Positions 1,715 through 22,404 of a DNA stretch of 64,000 nucleotides are shown one piece after another (positions within the stretch are counted from its first letter, which is position 1; each line of letters begins with the position of its first letter). Source of the stretch: Clostridia bacterium (GTDB taxonomy: Bacteria; Bacillota; Clostridia; Oscillospirales; CAG-272); contig JAGALA010000054.1 of the NCBI GenBank assembly GCA_017625935.1, positions 7,655-71,654 on the forward strand, in the 5' to 3' direction. A program made the translations under genes and the position numbers. The notes beneath the pieces are model-generated. The model ran no database searches. It was given only the letters and a program-made list of their open reading frames with translations, and had not been told where the DNA came from.

Positions 1715-3634
1715 ATGAAAAAGAAAATTTTATTTACGCTTTTGACGCTTGCGCTCTTTATCTGCTTATTCACAGTAGCAGTAAGCGCTGCAGCACAAAG
1801 CTATTCAAGCTATGAGGTTACGTTGACTGACGGTACAACCAAAACGGTGTACGCTGCAGGAGTTGACCAATGGGAGGGAAGGGTTTACCTCAATGCAAAG
1901 CTTTACGCAGAGGCGCCTCTTGATAGCGACGGAACATACGAGGAGGTTGATTGGACCACCGTTGAGGAGCTTGACTTCTCAAATGTAATGCTTTATGTGT
2001 ATGATTCAAACAAAAAAGTATGGAACGAGCGCGAGTACGGTTCAAACCAAGGCAATACGGCGCTTTGCTTGTACCCTAATGGACTTAACAAAAAGACACA
2101 GCTGACAAGCCTTAAAAAGGTAACAACCGGCAAGATTGTCACATTAAGAGAAGGTGCTTTTAATAGAGCACCGGCGCTTGAAACGCTTGTTATTTCAAGC
2201 AATCTTAAATATATCCAAAATAATGCTTTTTATTACTGCAACACTCTTAAAGAAATTAAATTTGACGGCGTTTCATCACTTGAAACCATCACTGACTCAT
2301 TCGTTGGCTGTACATCACTTACAGAGGTGTATTTGCCTGCAAGCTTAAAAAGCTTAAACAACACCTTTAACGGTTGCACATCGTTAAAAAACGTAGATCT
2401 TGGCGGTGTAACAAGCATTGGAAGTAGCACCTTTAATGGCTGCACATCCTTGGAAAGTATTTATATTCCAGCAAGCGTTACTTATATCGGCTCTGACTGC
2501 TGGCGTGGTTGTACAGGCGTAACAAAGATTACATTTGACCCCAATTGCCCTGTTACACACATCTACGCACATACCTTTGACGGCACAAGAGCAACCGAAA
2601 TTACACTTCCGAATTCAGTAACAAGCATAGGTCAAAATGCGTTTGCATCATCAACCTTAACAACGATAAACCTTGGTGCAAGCTTTAACAACTTCAATGC
2701 CAGCAATGCGAGTCAAGCACCGCTTAGCGGCAGAAACATAGAATATCTCTATCTATCCGATACCTTCACATCGGAGCAGTTAAGAAATAACATTTTCAAC
2801 TGGACGGATACAAATAACGCTAACGACCTAAAGGTCATTTGCTACAAGCTCGTTGTTTTCTATTCGGGCGATAAAGCGGCTGCAGAGGCTATTATAAACA
2901 AGGCGAAAACAGGTGGCGAAAACGGAGCAATGCTCAACGGCTTCTTTGCTTCTATGACACTTTTGACAGTCGAGGAGTATGAAAAAGCAGTAGCGGACGG
3001 CACACTTGTAATAGGCACAAATGGCGCACCCGCAAGATATATGGTTTACGGCTACAATAAGTGCGAAGCATTCTATGACGGCAATCACGCTATCTCTGAG
3101 GACGCAACCTTGAAGTTTGAGGGTGAGGACTACATTTCAAGATACATTTCCGTTTGTGCTTGCACACGCGGTTGCGGCAGTGATGCCGTAACTGAAATTT
3201 GCGGCCCGCTCTTTAAGAATAAGGGCTACTCGGTATATGAGGAAAATTCAAAGGGCAACATCACGTACGGTATATACGTTGACGAAGCAAACGTTGAAGC
3301 ATACGAAAAATTCACAGGAAATGACGTTTCCTTTGGCTTCGTTGTAGGAAACGTAAACGATGAGCTTGACGGCAAAATTATAGGTAATGACGGCACCTGC
3401 TTGCTTGCCGGTGCAATTGCTACCGATTTTGCGACAATTGATTTCAAGTCCTTCTCGGTTTACAATCTTAAGCTCACAGGCATTGAAACCGATGTTCAGA
3501 AAGCAAAGAGCATTTATTGCGGCACATACGTAGTTGACGGCGGCATCGTTTCATACATTGGCGACAACGTAACGGATAAATCAGTAGCCGTAAGCTACAA
3601 TGCGATTTACGAAGCTAAAAAAGACGAAGAATAA
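1715..3634 (+). CDS. secreted BspA-type leucine-rich-repeat protein with C-terminal Cys-headed domain
   Basis: Signal peptide MKKKILFTLLTLALFICLFTVAVSA. LRR units of about 23 aa (F.GCTSL..V.LP.S..SI). The C-terminal 160 aa is paralogous to domains in the 6693 and 20669 proteins. RBS AAAGGAGAG. Confidence 0.85.
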   Translation: MKKKILFTLLTLALFICLFTVAVSAAAQSYSSYEVTLTDGTTKTVYAAGVDQWEGRVYLNAKLYAEAPLDSDGTYEEVDWTTVEELDFSNVMLYVYDSNKKVWNEREYGSNQGNTALCLYPNGLNKKTQLTSLKKVTTGKIVTLREGAFNRAPALETLVISSNLKYIQNNAFYYCNTLKEIKFDGVSSLETITDSFVGCTSLTEVYLPASLKSLNNTFNGCTSLKNVDLGGVTSIGSSTFNGCTSLESIYIPASVTYIGSDCWRGCTGVTKITFDPNCPVTHIYAHTFDGTRATEITLPNSVTSIGQNAFASSTLTTINLGASFNNFNASNASQAPLSGRNIEYLYLSDTFTSEQLRNNIFNWTDTNNANDLKVICYKLVVFYSGDKAAAEAIINKAKTGGENGAMLNGFFASMTLLTVEEYEKAVADGTLVIGTNGAPARYMVYGYNKCEAFYDGNHAISEDATLKFEGEDYISRYISVCACTRGCGSDAVTEICGPLFKNKGYSVYEENSKGNITYGIYVDEANVEAYEKFTGNDVSFGFVVGNVNDELDGKIIGNDGTCLLAGAIATDFATIDFKSFSVYNLKLTGIETDVQKAKSIYCGTYVVDGGIVSYIGDNVTDKSVAVSYNAIYEAKKDEE

Positions 3635-6692: not shown

Positions 6693-9620
6693 ATGAAAAA
6701 GAAGCTGATTTTTTCCATCGTTTTATGTATGCTTGCGATTTTTGCATTTTCATTTGCGGTAAGCGCTGAAGATGATGTTTGCGAGCATCAATATGACGGC
6801 TGGACAGTAGCTCTTGGTGAAAACGGATTTCTTGGCGAAATTACCGCAACTGCAAAATGTAGCGAATGCGGCGAAGCAACAACCGAGATAATACCGAAAA
6901 TCTTTATCACTAAGGGCTATTCAAATTCAAGCGACGGCATTATGCAGGATTACGGCGTAAACAGAGAAGCGCTCGCAAAATACGAGCAGCTTTCGGGTGA
7001 GGCGGTTAAATTCGGTGCGGTCGTTGCATTAAGAGAGTCAATAGGTGACAAAAACCCACTTGATAACAACGGTAAGCCGATAAGCTCAAAGGTGAAAAGC
7101 CTTGACTATACCGACAAAGAGTATAGCGTTATCAGCGTTTCAATTAAGGGTATTCCCGAAAACGTGAAGGAGTCAAGCGGGCTTATTTGCGCGCTTTACG
7201 TTAACGCAGGCGGCAGAACAACCTACCTTGACAACTGTGCGGAAAAGGTGAGCTGCGGCGCAAAAACCTTTACCGAGATTGAAGCAGTTCCCGAAAAGGA
7301 CACAGCCAAGCTCGATAAGGTGGAGGTTATTGACGGTCAAAGATATCACGAAATGACATATGAGGAAATGGGCTTGACTGCAAAAAAATATTGGAACAAT
7401 AAATCGAGCTACAACAGTGACGATACCTCCAAAAAATTCTTTGCAACAAAGAGCCTTACAAGCGAGGACTTGCCAAATGGCACAATAATTTATATTGAAA
7501 ACACCGAATGGCAATACCGTCCGCATAAATATCATTCTGGATCTTTCCAAAGACCTTCAACCACTAAAGATGAATACACAGTAATAGACGACAGCTGGTG
7601 GGCGGATTTAGACGGCTCAGGCACGTACACAAACGTTGGCTTTAACATCAGCTACTATAAGAACAGCTCAGCGACAAATGATATAAGCAAGCTTCCTTCT
7701 ATCTACGAAGCTTATACGGTAGAAGATATAGCCGAAATCTTTAAGATTTTCGTTCCTGTTACATATACAGAGGACAACACAGGCGGTAACGAGGGTGGAA
7801 ATGAAGGCGGCGGAGACGTTGGCGGTGATGACGTTATCGTTCCCGAGCTTCCAGACTACTCGGCAGAAAAGCAAAATTGGCAGGAAGACGGCGCGCTTAA
7901 AATTTTGGCAATCGGCAACAGCTTCTCTGATGACGCAATGGAACACGTATATCAGGTGGCAAAGGATGCAGGCGTAGAGAGCATCAAGCTTGGCAATATG
8001 TTCATTGGTGGATGCTCGCTTGCAACACATCTTAACAATGCACAAAATAACAAGGGCGCATATACTTATCGTACAAACACAAACGGCACATGGTCAAGTG
8101 TAAACAGTGTTTCAATTAAGACCGCCGTTGAAAGCGACGATTGGGACTTTATCACCTTCCAGCAGGTAAGCGGTAAGAGCGGTGTTGCAGACACCTATAA
8201 TGACCTTTACGAGCTTATTAAAATAGTTGAGCCGCTTAACCCGTCTGCGCGCCTTGCTTGGCATATGACGTGGGCGTACAAGGTTGGCTCAAGCCATTCC
8301 GATTTCCCAACCTACAACAGAGATCAAATGACAATGTATAACGCGATTGTCGATGCGGTTGAAGCAAAGATTTTGACCATCGACAATATCGAAATCGTAA
8401 TTCCTTCGGGAACTGCAATTCAAAACGTGAGAACGTCGTTTATCGGTGATACAACACGTGACGGCTATCACCTTTCATACGGTATCGGCAGATACATCGC
8501 GGCAATGACCTACGTAAAAGCACTCACAGGACTTTCAATCGATAATTCAATGATTTGTCCAAGCGACGTTGATGCAGGCGAGCTTCGAGCAATTATCGAA
8601 TGTGTAAACAACGCGTACAAAACACCGTTTGCAGTTACACAATCAGCGTATGAGGAAAGACCGGTAGAACCGACACCCGATCCCGACGAGCCAAGCGATA
8701 TCTTGGACGGCTTGGTAAGAGTTGAATATCTTGATTGGGTAGCAGGAGGATATTGGAATTCAAGTGACGCAAGTCAAGTAAACATCAGAATTACAACTGC
8801 ATCAAACTCACCAAACTTTTGGGCGACGAGACTGTTCACAAAGGAACAGCTTCCCGTTGGCTCCGTTATCGTGGTTGAAAGCGGTTGGCAATACCGCCCC
8901 GACGGTTGGGTGGATTTAAACACTAAAAACAATAACAGACCCAACAACGTTTCAACGTACTGTGTTGTAATTGACGAAGCGTGGTGGGGAAATTATACCG
9001 TGAGAGGCTTTAATATCTCCAACAGCTCTACTTCAAACATTGTCTCAAAGACCGAGGATGAAATAAACGCAATATTCAAAATCTACGTTCCCGAGTCAGC
9101 AGCAGATGCTAACAAGGCACCTGTAGTAGAGGAGCCCGAAGCACCTGAGACTCCCGAGCTGCCGAATGTCATGGTAAGCTCAAATGATTGCGTTTCAGAA
9201 ATCACTGTAATTGACGGCAAGGAATACCGTGCGCTTACACTTGAAGCAATGGGCTTTGAAAAGAACGCATACTATTATTCAAGCAACAAGGGTGCGGAGA
9301 TTTACGAGACAGGAACGTCAGGCACACCGTCACAGTTCTTCGCAACTAAAACGTTTACAAAGGACGACTTACCTATTGGCGCGGTTATTTGGGTTGAAAG
9401 CGGATGGCGCTATCGTCCTGAGGGCTGGACATATACCGGATCACGCCCAAATAACGTGACTACAACCTACGTAACAGCAAATGAAGCTTGGTGGGGTAGT
9501 CACACAATAAAAGGCTTTAACATTTCGAAAACGAATAGCGCTTCTTTGGTAGATGTAAGTGTAGAAACAATTTACGAAAACTTCAAAATCTACATTCCTG
9601 TAGAAAATATTGCAGAGTAA
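6693..9620 (+). CDS. 975-aa secreted multidomain protein: Cys-headed domain, repeat R1, SGNH-like hydrolase (DUF4886-like), repeats R2 and R3
   Basis: The ATG at 6693 follows AAGGAG at 6681-6686. Signal peptide MKKKLIFSIVLCMLAIFAFSFAVSA. The SGNH blocks GNSFS and DGYH lie within KILAIGNSFSDD...TRDGYHLS. The ORF-track start at 6639 lacks an RBS. Confidence 0.85.
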   Translation: MKKKLIFSIVLCMLAIFAFSFAVSAEDDVCEHQYDGWTVALGENGFLGEITATAKCSECGEATTEIIPKIFITKGYSNSSDGIMQDYGVNREALAKYEQLSGEAVKFGAVVALRESIGDKNPLDNNGKPISSKVKSLDYTDKEYSVISVSIKGIPENVKESSGLICALYVNAGGRTTYLDNCAEKVSCGAKTFTEIEAVPEKDTAKLDKVEVIDGQRYHEMTYEEMGLTAKKYWNNKSSYNSDDTSKKFFATKSLTSEDLPNGTIIYIENTEWQYRPHKYHSGSFQRPSTTKDEYTVIDDSWWADLDGSGTYTNVGFNISYYKNSSATNDISKLPSIYEAYTVEDIAEIFKIFVPVTYTEDNTGGNEGGNEGGGDVGGDDVIVPELPDYSAEKQNWQEDGALKILAIGNSFSDDAMEHVYQVAKDAGVESIKLGNMFIGGCSLATHLNNAQNNKGAYTYRTNTNGTWSSVNSVSIKTAVESDDWDFITFQQVSGKSGVADTYNDLYELIKIVEPLNPSARLAWHMTWAYKVGSSHSDFPTYNRDQMTMYNAIVDAVEAKILTIDNIEIVIPSGTAIQNVRTSFIGDTTRDGYHLSYGIGRYIAAMTYVKALTGLSIDNSMICPSDVDAGELRAIIECVNNAYKTPFAVTQSAYEERPVEPTPDPDEPSDILDGLVRVEYLDWVAGGYWNSSDASQVNIRITTASNSPNFWATRLFTKEQLPVGSVIVVESGWQYRPDGWVDLNTKNNNRPNNVSTYCVVIDEAWWGNYTVRGFNISNSSTSNIVSKTEDEINAIFKIYVPESAADANKAPVVEEPEAPETPELPNVMVSSNDCVSEITVIDGKEYRALTLEAMGFEKNAYYYSSNKGAEIYETGTSGTPSQFFATKTFTKDDLPIGAVIWVESGWRYRPEGWTYTGSRPNNVTTTYVTANEAWWGSHTIKGFNISKTNSASLVDVSVETIYENFKIYIPVENIAE
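7344..7760 (+). repeat. intragenic protein repeat R1 (about 130 aa)
   Basis: FFATKSLTSEDLPNGTIIYIENTEWQYRPH...WW...GFNIS...IFKIFVPV aligns with R2 and R3. Confidence 0.8.
8715..9092 (+). repeat. intragenic protein repeat R2
   Basis: FWATRLFTKEQLPVGSVIVVESGWQYRPDGW...WWGNYTVRGFNIS...IFKIYVP. Confidence 0.8.
9225..9602 (+). repeat. intragenic protein repeat R3
   Basis: FFATKTFTKDDLPIGAVIWVESGWRYRPEGW...WWGSHTIKGFNIS...NFKIYIPV. Confidence 0.8.
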
Positions 9621-9633
9621 GGAGGATGGTAAA

Positions 9634-9786
9634 ATGAAATATATTAAACCTACATTCGAGCTTGTTGAGCTTGAAATAGCAGACGTTATAGCCGCCTCCG
9701 GCGAGCAGGGCTCAATCACGGTTGACGACACAACCATAACGGGTCCAAAGGACAGCTTTTCGCAATATTTTGACGATTTATTATAA
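9634..9786 (+). CDS. 50-aa acidic small protein (MKYIKPTFELVELEIADVIAASGEQGSITVDDTTITGPKDSFSQYFDDLL), paralogue of 22210-22362
   Basis: Not in the ORF track because it is under 60 aa. GGAGGA RBS at 9621-9626, 7 nt before the ATG. It starts 13 nt after the stop of the 975-aa protein and is followed by the terminator at 9799-9826. It shares MKY[IV].P..E...LE..D[VI]I and a C-terminal S..FD.L with the second copy. Confidence 0.6.
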   Translation: MKYIKPTFELVELEIADVIAASGEQGSITVDDTTITGPKDSFSQYFDDLL

Positions 9787-9798
9787 ACCAAATAAAAA

Positions 9799-9826
9799 GA
9801 TGCAAGCCGCGGCTTGCATCTTTTTT
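9799..9826. terminator. bidirectional intrinsic terminator
   Basis: GATGCAAGCC-GC-GGCTTGCATC followed by TTTTTT, with an A-run upstream. It lies between convergent genes. Confidence 0.8.
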
Positions 9827-9838
9827 ATTTCACATTTT

Positions 9839-20668: not shown

Positions 20669-22213
20669 ATGAAAAAGAAAATCTTTTTAGTGCTGGCACT
20701 TGTCGTAATGCTGGTATGCGTTTTTGCTATTTCAGTAAGTGCAAAAGAAGCATATTTAGAGCCAATTCCCGAAAATTTACTTTGGGAAAATGACACGGTA
20801 ACCCACTTTATAGTATTTGATGACGAAAAATACTATACCGGTAGCGGTTCCACGCTAAATCAACTCAATGTAGAGAAAATTGAAGAATCTCTCGCTTCTC
20901 TTGGCATATCCTCAGCAGATATCGGCAAAACTTATTTAACAAAATTTGTTTTCCCTGCATATCTTAACGGAACACTACTTACCTATATAGATGTAAACTC
21001 ATCTATAAAAACAAATAAATATTTTAAACATGTATGTGGCTATGTTTCGTTCCCCGGCACAATGACAAAAACCCACGATATGAATGACTGTGTCAATCAA
21101 TTAAGAGGAATTGACTTTGGCGAAAACAGTCAATTAACCGTTATTCCTTATTGCTTTGCAAACAAAGCAACCAAATTAAAAGAGGTTAAAAACTTCCCAA
21201 CTGCAAAGCTTGTAACAATTGAAGGCGATGCTTTTAACGGTGCAAAACAAGCATTTCGCGGTGAATTAGTCATAAACGCAAAAACAATAAAACAAAGCGC
21301 ATTTAACAACGCCACAACCTTTGTTACAAGTCTTATTTTTGGCGAAAACGTTGAAAGAATTGAAACTCAAGCGTTTAGTGTAAAATCAAGCGAAACAGGT
21401 TTAGGCAATCCCCATCTTGAATATATCGAGTTCAAAAGTGACGTTTCAAAAATTGCAACTACCTCTTACGGTCCATTCTATTTTGAGCTTGGCGGTAGCT
21501 CAAGAAGTGAATATACAAGTCTGAAATGCATTGTTCTTTCAAATGAGGAAAACAAGAATGCAATATCAAACGGAGCAACAATTTTTAATGACATTGCACC
21601 AAACTCATATATTAGATTTTTCCTTGATGAAACAAAGGAAATCATTCATTCCTCACACGAAATAGACTACGAAAATGCAACAATTTCCTATGAGAGCTTT
21701 CTTGAAAACGGCACTCTTACAAGCTATTGCACAAGATGTAATAAGGCGGAAACAGTAAGCACAGACCCACTCTTTGTAAACCTCGGCTTCTCGGCGGCTG
21801 AATACGCAGGCGGCGGAATGTCAATAGGCTTTAAGGTGGATAAGAAGGCTATTGAAAAATACGAAGAAATCACAGGCGAGACCGTTAACTACGGCGTATT
21901 CGCGGTTTTGGCAGAGAAGATAGGAGCAAACGATATATTTGATTCCGAGGGCAAAGCACTTGCAGGCGTTATTGCCGCAGACATCACGGATACAGATTTT
22001 GATATTTTCAACCTTAAAATAGTAGGCTTTACGGGCGATCAGGTTGACACTAAGCTTGCAATGGGTGCGTACGTTGGCACAACCAAGGACGGCACAACAG
22101 AATATGCATACTTGCAGGGCGGTACACCCGAAACGGGCGCAAAATATTTCTTTGCTTCATATAATGACGTAAAAGCAATAGTTGATAACAAAAATGGGGT
22201 GAGCGCACAATGA
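20669..22213 (+). CDS. secreted BspA-type LRR protein with C-terminal Cys-headed domain
   Basis: Signal peptide MKKKIFLVLALVVMLVCVFAISVSA and degenerate LRR units. The C-terminal CTRCNKAE..PLFVNLGFS...AIEKYEEITGETVNYGVF is paralogous to the 1715 and 6693 proteins. Confidence 0.8.
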   Translation: MKKKIFLVLALVVMLVCVFAISVSAKEAYLEPIPENLLWENDTVTHFIVFDDEKYYTGSGSTLNQLNVEKIEESLASLGISSADIGKTYLTKFVFPAYLNGTLLTYIDVNSSIKTNKYFKHVCGYVSFPGTMTKTHDMNDCVNQLRGIDFGENSQLTVIPYCFANKATKLKEVKNFPTAKLVTIEGDAFNGAKQAFRGELVINAKTIKQSAFNNATTFVTSLIFGENVERIETQAFSVKSSETGLGNPHLEYIEFKSDVSKIATTSYGPFYFELGGSSRSEYTSLKCIVLSNEENKNAISNGATIFNDIAPNSYIRFFLDETKEIIHSSHEIDYENATISYESFLENGTLTSYCTRCNKAETVSTDPLFVNLGFSAAEYAGGGMSIGFKVDKKAIEKYEEITGETVNYGVFAVLAEKIGANDIFDSEGKALAGVIAADITDTDFDIFNLKIVGFTGDQVDTKLAMGAYVGTTKDGTTEYAYLQGGTPETGAKYFFASYNDVKAIVDNKNGVSAQ

Positions 22214-22362
22214 AATACGTTTCTCCTATGTACGAAAAATTCTTGCTTGAAGCCTGCGACATTATAATGTCGGGAGAGAATTACACCATCGAGGAAACTA
22301 AGGACGAAAGCGGAAGCTCGGTCGGAAACGTAATAATGAGCGCGTTTGACTTATTCAAATAA
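22210..22362 (+). CDS. 50-aa acidic small protein (MKYVSPMYEKFLLEACDIIMSGENYTIEETKDESGSSVGNVIMSAFDLFK), paralogue of 9634-9786
   Basis: Not in the ORF track. Its ATG overlaps the upstream TGA (ATGA at 22210-22213). It is the same length as the first copy and shares its N- and C-terminal motifs. A terminator follows. Confidence 0.6.
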   Translation: MKYVSPMYEKFLLEACDIIMSGENYTIEETKDESGSSVGNVIMSAFDLFK

Positions 22363-22371
22363 AAAACAAAA

Positions 22372-22404
22372 AACAGAATTTCGTCGCCGAAATTCTGTTT
22401 TTTT
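22372..22404. terminator. bidirectional intrinsic terminator
   Basis: AACAGAATTTCG-TCGC-CGAAATTCTGTT followed by a T-run, with an A-run upstream. Confidence 0.8.

Follow-up and report, generated by a model that had tools for sequence, protein, structure and literature searches.

We analysed a 64,000-nucleotide stretch of DNA (the window) from a Clostridia bacterium (assembly GCA_017625935.1, contig JAGALA010000054.1, positions 7,655 to 71,654). We report here on P0001, a gene for a 50-aa acidic peptide that lies directly behind the gene of a large secreted protein and to which an earlier note, made from the letters alone, had drawn attention. The features of the locus are as follows.

6693-9620, forward strand: upstream gene for a 975-aa protein with a Sec signal, read from its MKKK start (the open reading frame, ORF, runs from 6639 and spans 993 aa)
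6780-7301, forward strand: N-terminal CxxC-headed domain of this protein, residues 48-221 of the 993-aa ORF (jackhmmer i-E 1.3e-44; BLASTP to paralogues)
9621-9626, forward strand: GGAGGA ribosome-binding site, 7 nt 5' of the P0001 ATG, kept in the orthologous loci L005 and L006
9634-9786, forward strand: P0001, 50-aa peptide gene, putative precursor-type micro-protein; ATG at 9634, stop at 9784-9786
9794-9831, no strand assigned: intrinsic terminator from a terminator scan, with a G+C-rich 14-bp hairpin at 9794-9825 and T-runs on both sides

With the TAA of the large gene ending at 9620, 13 nt are left before the P0001 ATG, and the terminator behind P0001 is common to a convergent aldo-keto reductase gene. 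The predicted product has a net charge of -7 (10 D/E, 3 K) and no Cys. The earlier note had described a 50-aa ORF of this composition with its own ribosome-binding site and a strong terminator directly 3' of it, and our coordinates, composition and terminator scan agree with that description. A search of 5.8 billion proteins returned 21 orthologues of P0001, all from Clostridia metagenome-assembled genomes (MAGs), with 65-94% identity. Bar three longer calls, these are 49-53 aa long, and G26-V30, T34-K39, F42, S43, F46 and L49 are nearly invariant among them. The gene order GH43, DUF4886 protein, 13-nt gap, peptide, convergent aldo-keto reductase, rbfA and truB is identical in L005, from the nearest assembly (GCA_052831765.1), and in L006, from assembly JAZREL (genome G201), which holds the 72%-identical orthologue P0017. 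When two orthologous loci, L006 among them, were compared, the terminator hairpin was found to be preserved by compensatory changes. The ratio of non-synonymous to synonymous substitution rates (dN/dS) at the orthologous loci was 0.20-0.21 at dS 0.32-0.83; this codon-level comparison, which the earlier note had proposed as a check, indicates purifying selection.

Neither Pfam nor NCBIfam gave a match to either of the two peptides encoded in the window at E <= 1, and a sequence search of the PDB with the peptide profile returned no match below E 0.2. That the ORF arose by chance, or is a non-coding element of the 3' untranslated region, might be argued from its shortness, its lack of annotation and a 116-codon ORF that overlaps it on the opposite strand. 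Such a reading is hardly credible given the dN/dS of about 0.2, the conserved ribosome-binding site and the retention of length and frame across 414 clusters of relatives (see below); Rfam gave zero matches across the window. We conclude that 9634-9786 is a genuine gene under purifying selection.

A second peptide gene of the same length lies further along the window.

20669-22213, forward strand: P0004, 514-aa secreted protein of the leucine-rich repeat (LRR) type; its TGA overlaps the P0002 ATG
21611-22210, forward strand: C-terminal CxxC-headed domain of P0004, residues 315-514 (jackhmmer E 1e-88)
22210-22362, forward strand: P0002, second peptide gene, 50 aa, coupled by an ATGA overlap; predicted leader at residues 1-18, Ser21 at Y+18, core type A
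22372-22404, no strand assigned: terminator hairpin behind P0002, read from the sequence by eye

P0001 and P0002 share 46% identity across their first 28 residues (pairwise BLASTP E 3e-6), so the equal-length relative that the earlier note had placed behind another secreted protein stands. Its description as a two-copy family holds for the window alone. The window's own assembly comprises 2.08 Mb in 61 contigs and is 95% complete; a regular-expression scan followed by a hidden Markov model search of all its ORFs found about 21 copies of 41-81 aa, and a six-frame search found 23 family matches, which brings the genome to about 21-23 copies. The copies have a common head, M-[KR]-Y-x-[ST/K]-P-x-[YFIL]-E-x3-[LVI]-E-x2-D-[IV]-[IL]-x(1,2)-S-[GS]. 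Their second half is variable but falls into few types, the usual ending being [GA][ND][VF]I[IM]xAxx[LI]F. When 1.84 billion representative proteins were searched with a profile, 414 clusters of relatives were retrieved at E <= 0.001. The best 150 of the 414 are all 36-77 aa long and the match nearly always begins at residue 1, and therefore the peptide is, among these, never part of a larger protein. The six-frame search also recovered a divergent 81-aa member outside the window (contig C51, 107258-107503, forward strand; E 5e-14). It lies 3' of two putative ABC sugar-permease genes and two large secreted proteins, and no CxxC-headed domain was recognisable there.

What the neighbours of the family have in common is the domain carried by the secreted protein. 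The earlier note had seen one Cys-headed domain in both of the large proteins that precede the window's peptides, and this is confirmed: the two copies are mutually alike (BLASTP E 3e-13) and are recovered by jackhmmer at E 1e-44 and 1e-88. The domain is about 190 aa long, opens with C/H pairs (CxxC ... CxxC) and is unclassified; Pfam and NCBIfam searches supplied no name for it. It is mostly C-terminal but N-terminal in the 975-aa protein and its paralogue. The 975-aa protein has the domain at its N-terminus, a DUF4886 centre (PF16227, E 7e-77) and three repeats. The other parts of the domain proteins vary and include BspA-type LRR, DUF4886, CotH-like and metallo-beta-lactamase-like regions; DUF4886 was identified by search and LRR_5 is on record for an orthologous locus, and the CotH-like and metallo-beta-lactamase-like parts were read from the sequences. 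The Sec signal peptide of the large ORFs 5' of the peptides is very uniform (MKKK..L....L.C.FA.SVSA). Among the copies in the own genome the gap from large ORF to peptide is mostly -4 to +2 nt and in a few cases 11-28 nt.

At least 18 of the 21 copies in the own genome lie directly 3' of a secreted protein that carries the domain, and a 1233-aa upstream ORF that fell below the jackhmmer threshold has a recognisable internal copy. Using the type-A subset of the family as query, we retrieved 37 related loci from gut and rumen MAGs. The domain was present in all 28 that had upstream sequence (E 1e-44 to 1e-68), in a sample that is biased towards type A because of the query. The domain itself was found by jackhmmer in about 44 ORFs of the own genome. 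One of these lies in the window without a peptide gene behind it.

1715-3634, forward strand: 639-aa secreted protein, CxxC-headed domain at residues 448-637, no peptide gene behind

The peptide is tied to the domain, and the domain can do without the peptide. An AlphaFold2 model of the domain, built on an alignment of 35 paralogues, reached a predicted local distance difference test score (pLDDT) of 89.8 and a predicted template modelling score (pTM) of 0.82; the modelled body is a beta-sandwich, with a small beta head and a helix at the C-terminus. Foldseek searches of the PDB with the domain model and with a domain-plus-peptide model found no close relative; the best match was DUF3823 (4fxt) with a TM score of 0.25-0.31, and a function was not indicated.

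The common head of the peptides recalls a recently described group of RiPPs (ribosomally synthesized peptides with post-translational modifications), the 'linear polyphosphorylated peptides' (LPPs), reported in 2026 from Bacilli, with one to three precursors in the cluster (PMC13381572). LPP precursors are defined there as ORFs of 35-200 aa that are conserved in their N-terminal region, highly variable at the C terminus and provided in the leader with a [Y/W]xxPx[L/V/I/F/A] motif that binds a RiPP recognition element (RRE). Their leader consensus is YxxPxVLxHQxIxFET/xxS, in which the slash marks cleavage after T-1 and polyphosphate is carried on S+3, which is Y+18 (PMC13381572); in LppA the polyphosphorylation site is S3, at Y+18 (PMC13381572). 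The core gene set consists of signal peptidase I (SpI), a stand-alone RRE, a kinase resembling HprK, a nucleoside triphosphate (NTP) transferase and a transporter of the MsbA-like type (PMC13381572). The paper leaves the final product and the function of LPPs open, and mentions neither secreted or surface proteins nor Clostridia (PMC13381572).

We compared the family with this description using 148 representatives anchored on the Tyr of the head. Y and P+3 are present in 148/148, E+6 in 84%, E+11 in 82%, D+14 in 90% (D/E+14 in 94%) and [IV]+15 in 97%. A Ser stands at Y+18 or Y+19 in all but one representative (147/148), at Y+18 in P0002 and at Y+19 in P0001. The family has the conserved head and variable tail of LPP precursors and falls within their length range, and it has the RRE-binding motif, with Y3 and P6 invariant and F, L, Y or I at position 8. 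Where the earlier note could assign the peptide to no known family, the LPPs, published in 2026, are now the best fit. Mapped onto P0001, the comparison suggests the following division.

9634-9687, forward strand: predicted leader (MKYIKPTFELVELEIADV, residues 1-18); RRE-binding motif Y3-x-x-P6-x-F8, D17 in the -2 position
9697-9699, forward strand: Ser22 at Y+19 (Y+18 in paralogues), candidate phospho-acceptor
9688-9783, forward strand: predicted acidic core (residues 19-50); beta-hairpin (SITVDD-TTIT) and short helix at the C-terminus (FSQYFDDLL), after the paralogue co-fold

By analogy with LppA, the leader would end after residue 18, although the boundary could instead fall after S22. The shared traits are a short precursor with a conserved N-terminal head and variable tail, the YxxPx-hydrophobic motif, an acidic residue at the position of E-2 and a Ser at Y+18/19 like S+3. 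The middle of the leader consensus is different here.

Relatives encode candidate enzymes for such a leader. Among 200 genomes spread evenly over the order, a stand-alone PqqD-type RRE of 86-125 aa was present in 22/22 other peptide-bearing genomes versus 63/178 peptide-free ones (Fisher p 1e-9, uncorrected for kinship; the 22 genomes represent 14 genera and 9 families). Each of five close MAGs with multi-copy type-A peptides has one strong stand-alone RRE. The RRE was accompanied by a peptidase in all seven loci inspected, and a kinase-like gene adjoins it in six of them, being missing beside the RRE in G052; the order is HprK-like, RRE, peptidase. The cassette RRE matches PF05402 (E 1e-15 to 1e-17), and in the PDB it comes closest to the lasso B1 protein TbiB1 and to LppB (9x8z). 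The peptidase (144-181 aa) matches archaeal-type signal peptidase I (TIGR02228, E 8e-9 to 3e-4) and SipW (1e-4), has invariant GxSMxP, His and GDN motifs and finds SEC11C as its top PDB match. The kinase-like protein (about 240 aa, GTGKST P-loop) matches ScmC (TIGR04249, 5e-7) and HprK_rel_A (TIGR04352, 0.006-0.03); its top PDB match was the P-loop of phosphoenolpyruvate carboxykinase (0.017).

Peptide and cassette lie close together in some genomes. In G136 and G082 a family peptide and the cassette are 7 kb apart. G177 has, in order of transcription, a 1577-aa secreted protein, a 35-aa family peptide (MKKQYEKPEIEITEFEIEDITCSS...) 13 nt behind it, an S-layer homology protein, kinase-like, RRE, peptidase, ABC exporter and NTP_transf_5. 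Judged by its gene content, the G177 cluster is a complete LPP core set as described for Bacilli (PMC13381572). An ABC exporter is also present beside the cassette in G165, and in G201 and G204 neither exporter nor NTP transferase adjoins the cassette. We conclude that the family co-occurs with an RRE/peptidase/kinase cassette and that one of its members sits inside a full LPP-type cluster. As with LPPs, the relatives have a discrete RRE beside a Ser/His/Asp archaeal-type signal peptidase and an HprK-like P-loop protein, with polysaccharide genes near. In G165 (L052, contig C74, 12517-15001) the cassette and exporter adjoin putative capsule-type genes (Wzz-like, tyrosine-kinase-like and PHP phosphatase-like); a capsule-type neighbourhood of this kind has been reported for Bacilli LPP clusters (PMC13381572). 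The arrangement differs from that of LPPs in several respects: the precursors lie outside the cluster, in about 20 dispersed copies; translation of each is coupled to the 3' end of a gene for a secreted protein with one shared domain; the cassette is reduced to three genes in the closest relatives; and in place of Bacilli the hosts are uncultured Clostridia from gut and rumen.

The same head might instead mark a lasso-peptide precursor, with a leader cut by a B2 protease and a core cyclised through Gly23 and Asp31. The YxxPx[LF] leader and the Gly after the Ser would suit this, and in many copies an acidic residue follows 7-9 positions on; because acidic residues are so frequent in these peptides, this spacing carries no weight, and some orthologues, such as P0025, lack it. 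PF13471, the B2 transglutaminase-type protease, is absent from the own genome, which has a single Asn synthase of housekeeping size (612 aa); none was found in the seven cassette loci, and in the relatives' cassettes the peptidase is SipW-like and a cyclase is missing. A lasso peptide is therefore very unlikely. The paeninodin-type lasso systems of Bacillota (PadeA/B1/B2/C/K) resemble the processing proposed here, as in them a discrete B1 RRE binds the leader motif and an HprK-like kinase modifies a Ser; what differs here is that B2 protease and macrolactam cyclase are missing and that the leader peptidase is of the signal-peptidase type.

Three further peptide classes were considered and rejected. 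A double-glycine leader with C39 ABC export was discarded as PF03412 is absent from the own genome, and a YcaO-modified peptide as the genome has no YcaO. A radical S-adenosylmethionine (SAM) route was discarded as the genome's sole SPASM enzyme, the SCIFF maturase, is encoded next to a six-Cys peptide of its own, and P0001 has no Cys. The SCIFF pair (contig C7, 30457-32050; 49-aa six-Cys peptide and 458-aa radical-SAM/SPASM maturase) is an ordinary Clostridial pair, unrelated to the family.

The relation of peptide and domain was modelled with AlphaFold2 as single chains of domain plus peptide in which the upstream TAA was read as Q. In-frame pairs were taken from contig C3 of the own genome and from four G201 loci, and the alignment combined these five paired rows with unpaired domain rows and unpaired peptide rows. 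The co-fold scored pLDDT 88.6 and pTM 0.81, with the domain as in its solo model. Chain residues 207-231 (the last three domain residues, Q and peptide residues 1-22) had a pLDDT of about 45, and peptide residues 23-51 formed two strands and a short helix at pLDDT 81-95. The boundary between disorder and order in the model, between Ser22 and Gly23, lies close to the leader/core boundary after residue 18 that LppA suggests. Because pLDDT is high for this 29-residue piece and the whole-chain pTM is not lowered, the core is probably docked on the CxxC-headed domain. MAFFT repeatedly set a C-terminal stretch of the domain, KYFFASYNDV (e.g. window 22130-22160), under the peptide head MKY..P.YE..DI; this alignment is probably a sum-of-pairs artefact, and the misalignment was cured by including four more natural in-frame read-through pairs.

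Taken together, we consider it on balance probable that P0001 encodes an LPP-type RiPP precursor whose leader is processed by the RRE cassette and whose phosphorylated core partners the upstream domain. A single stand-alone PqqD-type RRE, encoded elsewhere in the genome, would bind the leader (residues 1-18/22) through Y3-x-x-P6-x-F8. It would present the peptide to the HprK-like P-loop kinase, with Ser22 as the probable site of phosphorylation, and also to the SipW-like (archaeal-type) signal peptidase I, which would remove the leader. An ABC exporter may carry the core outside. This acidic stretch of about 30 residues, a predicted beta-hairpin plus short helix, would dock on the CxxC-headed domain of the upstream protein. 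In this way each surface protein would be produced along with a small, modified peptide as its own partner. For this copy, the processing, the cleavage site and the phosphorylation site are inferred by analogy with LPPs. Of the two possibilities offered by the earlier note, that of a leader-bearing peptide is the better supported, through the RRE-type head and the co-occurrence with the cassette, and that of a dedicated domain partner keeps the support of the synteny and the co-fold.

Several observations weigh against this proposal. The match to the LPP leader is partial, as the VL, HQ, I and F positions of the consensus are not kept and the Ser of P0001 stands at Y+19. RREs occur in 42% of genomes of the order and are therefore common enough that the co-occurrence is not exclusive. 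Of four fragmentary peptide-bearing MAGs, two have a stand-alone RRE and none was found in the other two. The matches of the kinase-like protein and the peptidase to their families fall under the curated cut-offs. P0001 has no signal peptide, while the proteins with the CxxC-headed domain are Sec-exported, which leaves their meeting place, within the cell or after export, unexplained. The own assembly, although 95% complete, yielded no RRE, no second HprK-like copy and no archaeal-type signal peptidase in Pfam/NCBIfam searches or in tblastn searches with the relatives' proteins; its only HprK is the housekeeping copy. This last absence has a plausible cause. In G201 and G204 the cassette adjoins genes for a 271-aa methyltransferase and a 429-aa RumA-like protein, and the own-genome homologues of both lie on contig C58 (3,859 bp), whose 3' end falls inside the methyltransferase homologue (aligned residues 1-235 of 271). 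Beyond the cassette G201 has RadC-like and GT2 genes, and the own assembly lacks these as well. Because C58 ends at the syntenic site and these flanking genes are missing too, the absence of the cassette is most simply an assembly gap. The argument is strong but indirect, and we count that indirectness among the points against the proposal. G201, which carries the cassette, is the genome of the syntenic orthologue P0017. An exact-word scan of JGI metagenome contigs with the C58 end gave no match.

One LPP-type function has a possible counterpart in the own genome, an NTP_transf_5 homologue on contig C7 (13110-14312, reverse strand; E 6e-55, 33% identity to that of G177), which could be an LppN-like member of the pathway. 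Judged from their sequences, its neighbours include a putative TagD-like cytidylyltransferase, a putative LicD-like protein and putative flippase and glycosyltransferase genes, which suggests a polysaccharide or teichoic-type locus.

The missing processing genes, taken at face value, would favour an unmodified cytoplasmic partner: the full 50-mer would bind the domain before export as a private chaperone, folding brake or inhibitor, and the head would serve a general partner. The tight translational coupling (13 nt here, ATGA overlaps elsewhere), the want of a signal peptide, the strict synteny with the domain and the ordered core of the co-fold all fit such a role. It has precedents in barnase-barstar and staphopain-staphostatin, in which a secreted protein is followed just downstream by a small leaderless cytoplasmic binder, a folded active-site inhibitor. 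P0001 resembles these binders as a small acidic signal-free protein directly behind a Sec-exported one, but they have no RRE-type leader, and the domain here is apparently non-catalytic and often free of a peptide. About 25 of the about 44 domain proteins of the own genome have a terminator only behind them. Behind two domain proteins, truncated relics of the peptide gene were found (MKYASSKY and MKYISPKYERTVK, each ending in a stop codon), and peptide copies therefore decay while the upstream gene remains open. The relic-bearing domain genes lie outside the window at C24, 43114-44853, and C1, 36551-38113, both on the reverse strand. The earlier note had suggested checking whether relatives are always found 3' of domain genes: the synteny holds from the side of the peptide (28/28 loci and at least 18/21 own copies) but not from that of the domain. 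That more than half of the domain proteins manage without a peptide, and that some copies have decayed, counts against the proposed processing and partnership and against an unmodified partner alike; with about 25 such proteins, the peptide is no obligate chaperone. The exact RRE motif in the head, the invariant Ser, the 22/22 co-occurrence with the RRE cassette, the family member in a full LPP cluster and the coincidence of the missing cassette with a contig end likewise speak against an unmodified partner, which we regard as unlikely.

The remaining points of this kind concern the core and the domain. The docking rests on one tethered single-chain AlphaFold model, judged by its pLDDT and pTM scores. 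In a Mantel mirror-tree comparison with domain distances, the leader gave rho 0.64 and the core rho 0.51, the core being no better. Leader and core both track the domain, and therefore only joint inheritance of the cassette is shown and nothing on binding. Moreover, core types A and B are both found behind near-identical domains. These data would also suit a RiPP product unrelated to the upstream protein, such as an exported signal, an antimicrobial or an envelope-modifying peptide, whose position gives expression or reflects duplication of the cassette. The leader and cassette evidence fits such a product equally well; core types swap between near-identical domains with no extra covariation of core and domain; and the giant protein of G177 has no match to the CxxC-headed domain. 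We nevertheless judge it improbable, as expression alone would hardly account for adjacency to one domain family, together with coupled translation, in 28/28 loci and at least 18/21 own copies, and AlphaFold orders the core in the domain context tested, with a whole-chain pTM of 0.81.

Within the proposal of a processed LPP-type partner, a more speculative step, which we put forward with much reserve, is that the phosphorylated cores act as non-covalent adaptors: the CxxC-headed tail domain would grip the exported phospho-peptide and so tie the protein to the envelope or to a polysaccharide. If true, LPP-type peptides would thereby gain their first biological role, in a RiPP-based system that sorts or anchors proteins.

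Prochlorosins provide a precedent for the genetic layout, as many dispersed precursor genes are served there by one enzyme, ProcM. Both cases have one trans-acting system and scattered precursors with a shared leader and diverse cores. They differ in leader family and chemistry, and the prochlorosin precursors are not coupled to particular protein genes. For the organism, the analysis defines a new, confidently folding extracellular domain that accounts for about 2% of the genes in a 2-Mb genome. For the family, it points to a different arrangement of an LPP-like system, in which a minimal trans-acting cassette would serve up to about 20 dispersed precursors. It would account for a class of unannotated micro-ORFs that recurs in gut metagenomes, and it offers a testable idea of what LPP-type peptides may be for, namely as partners of surface proteins.

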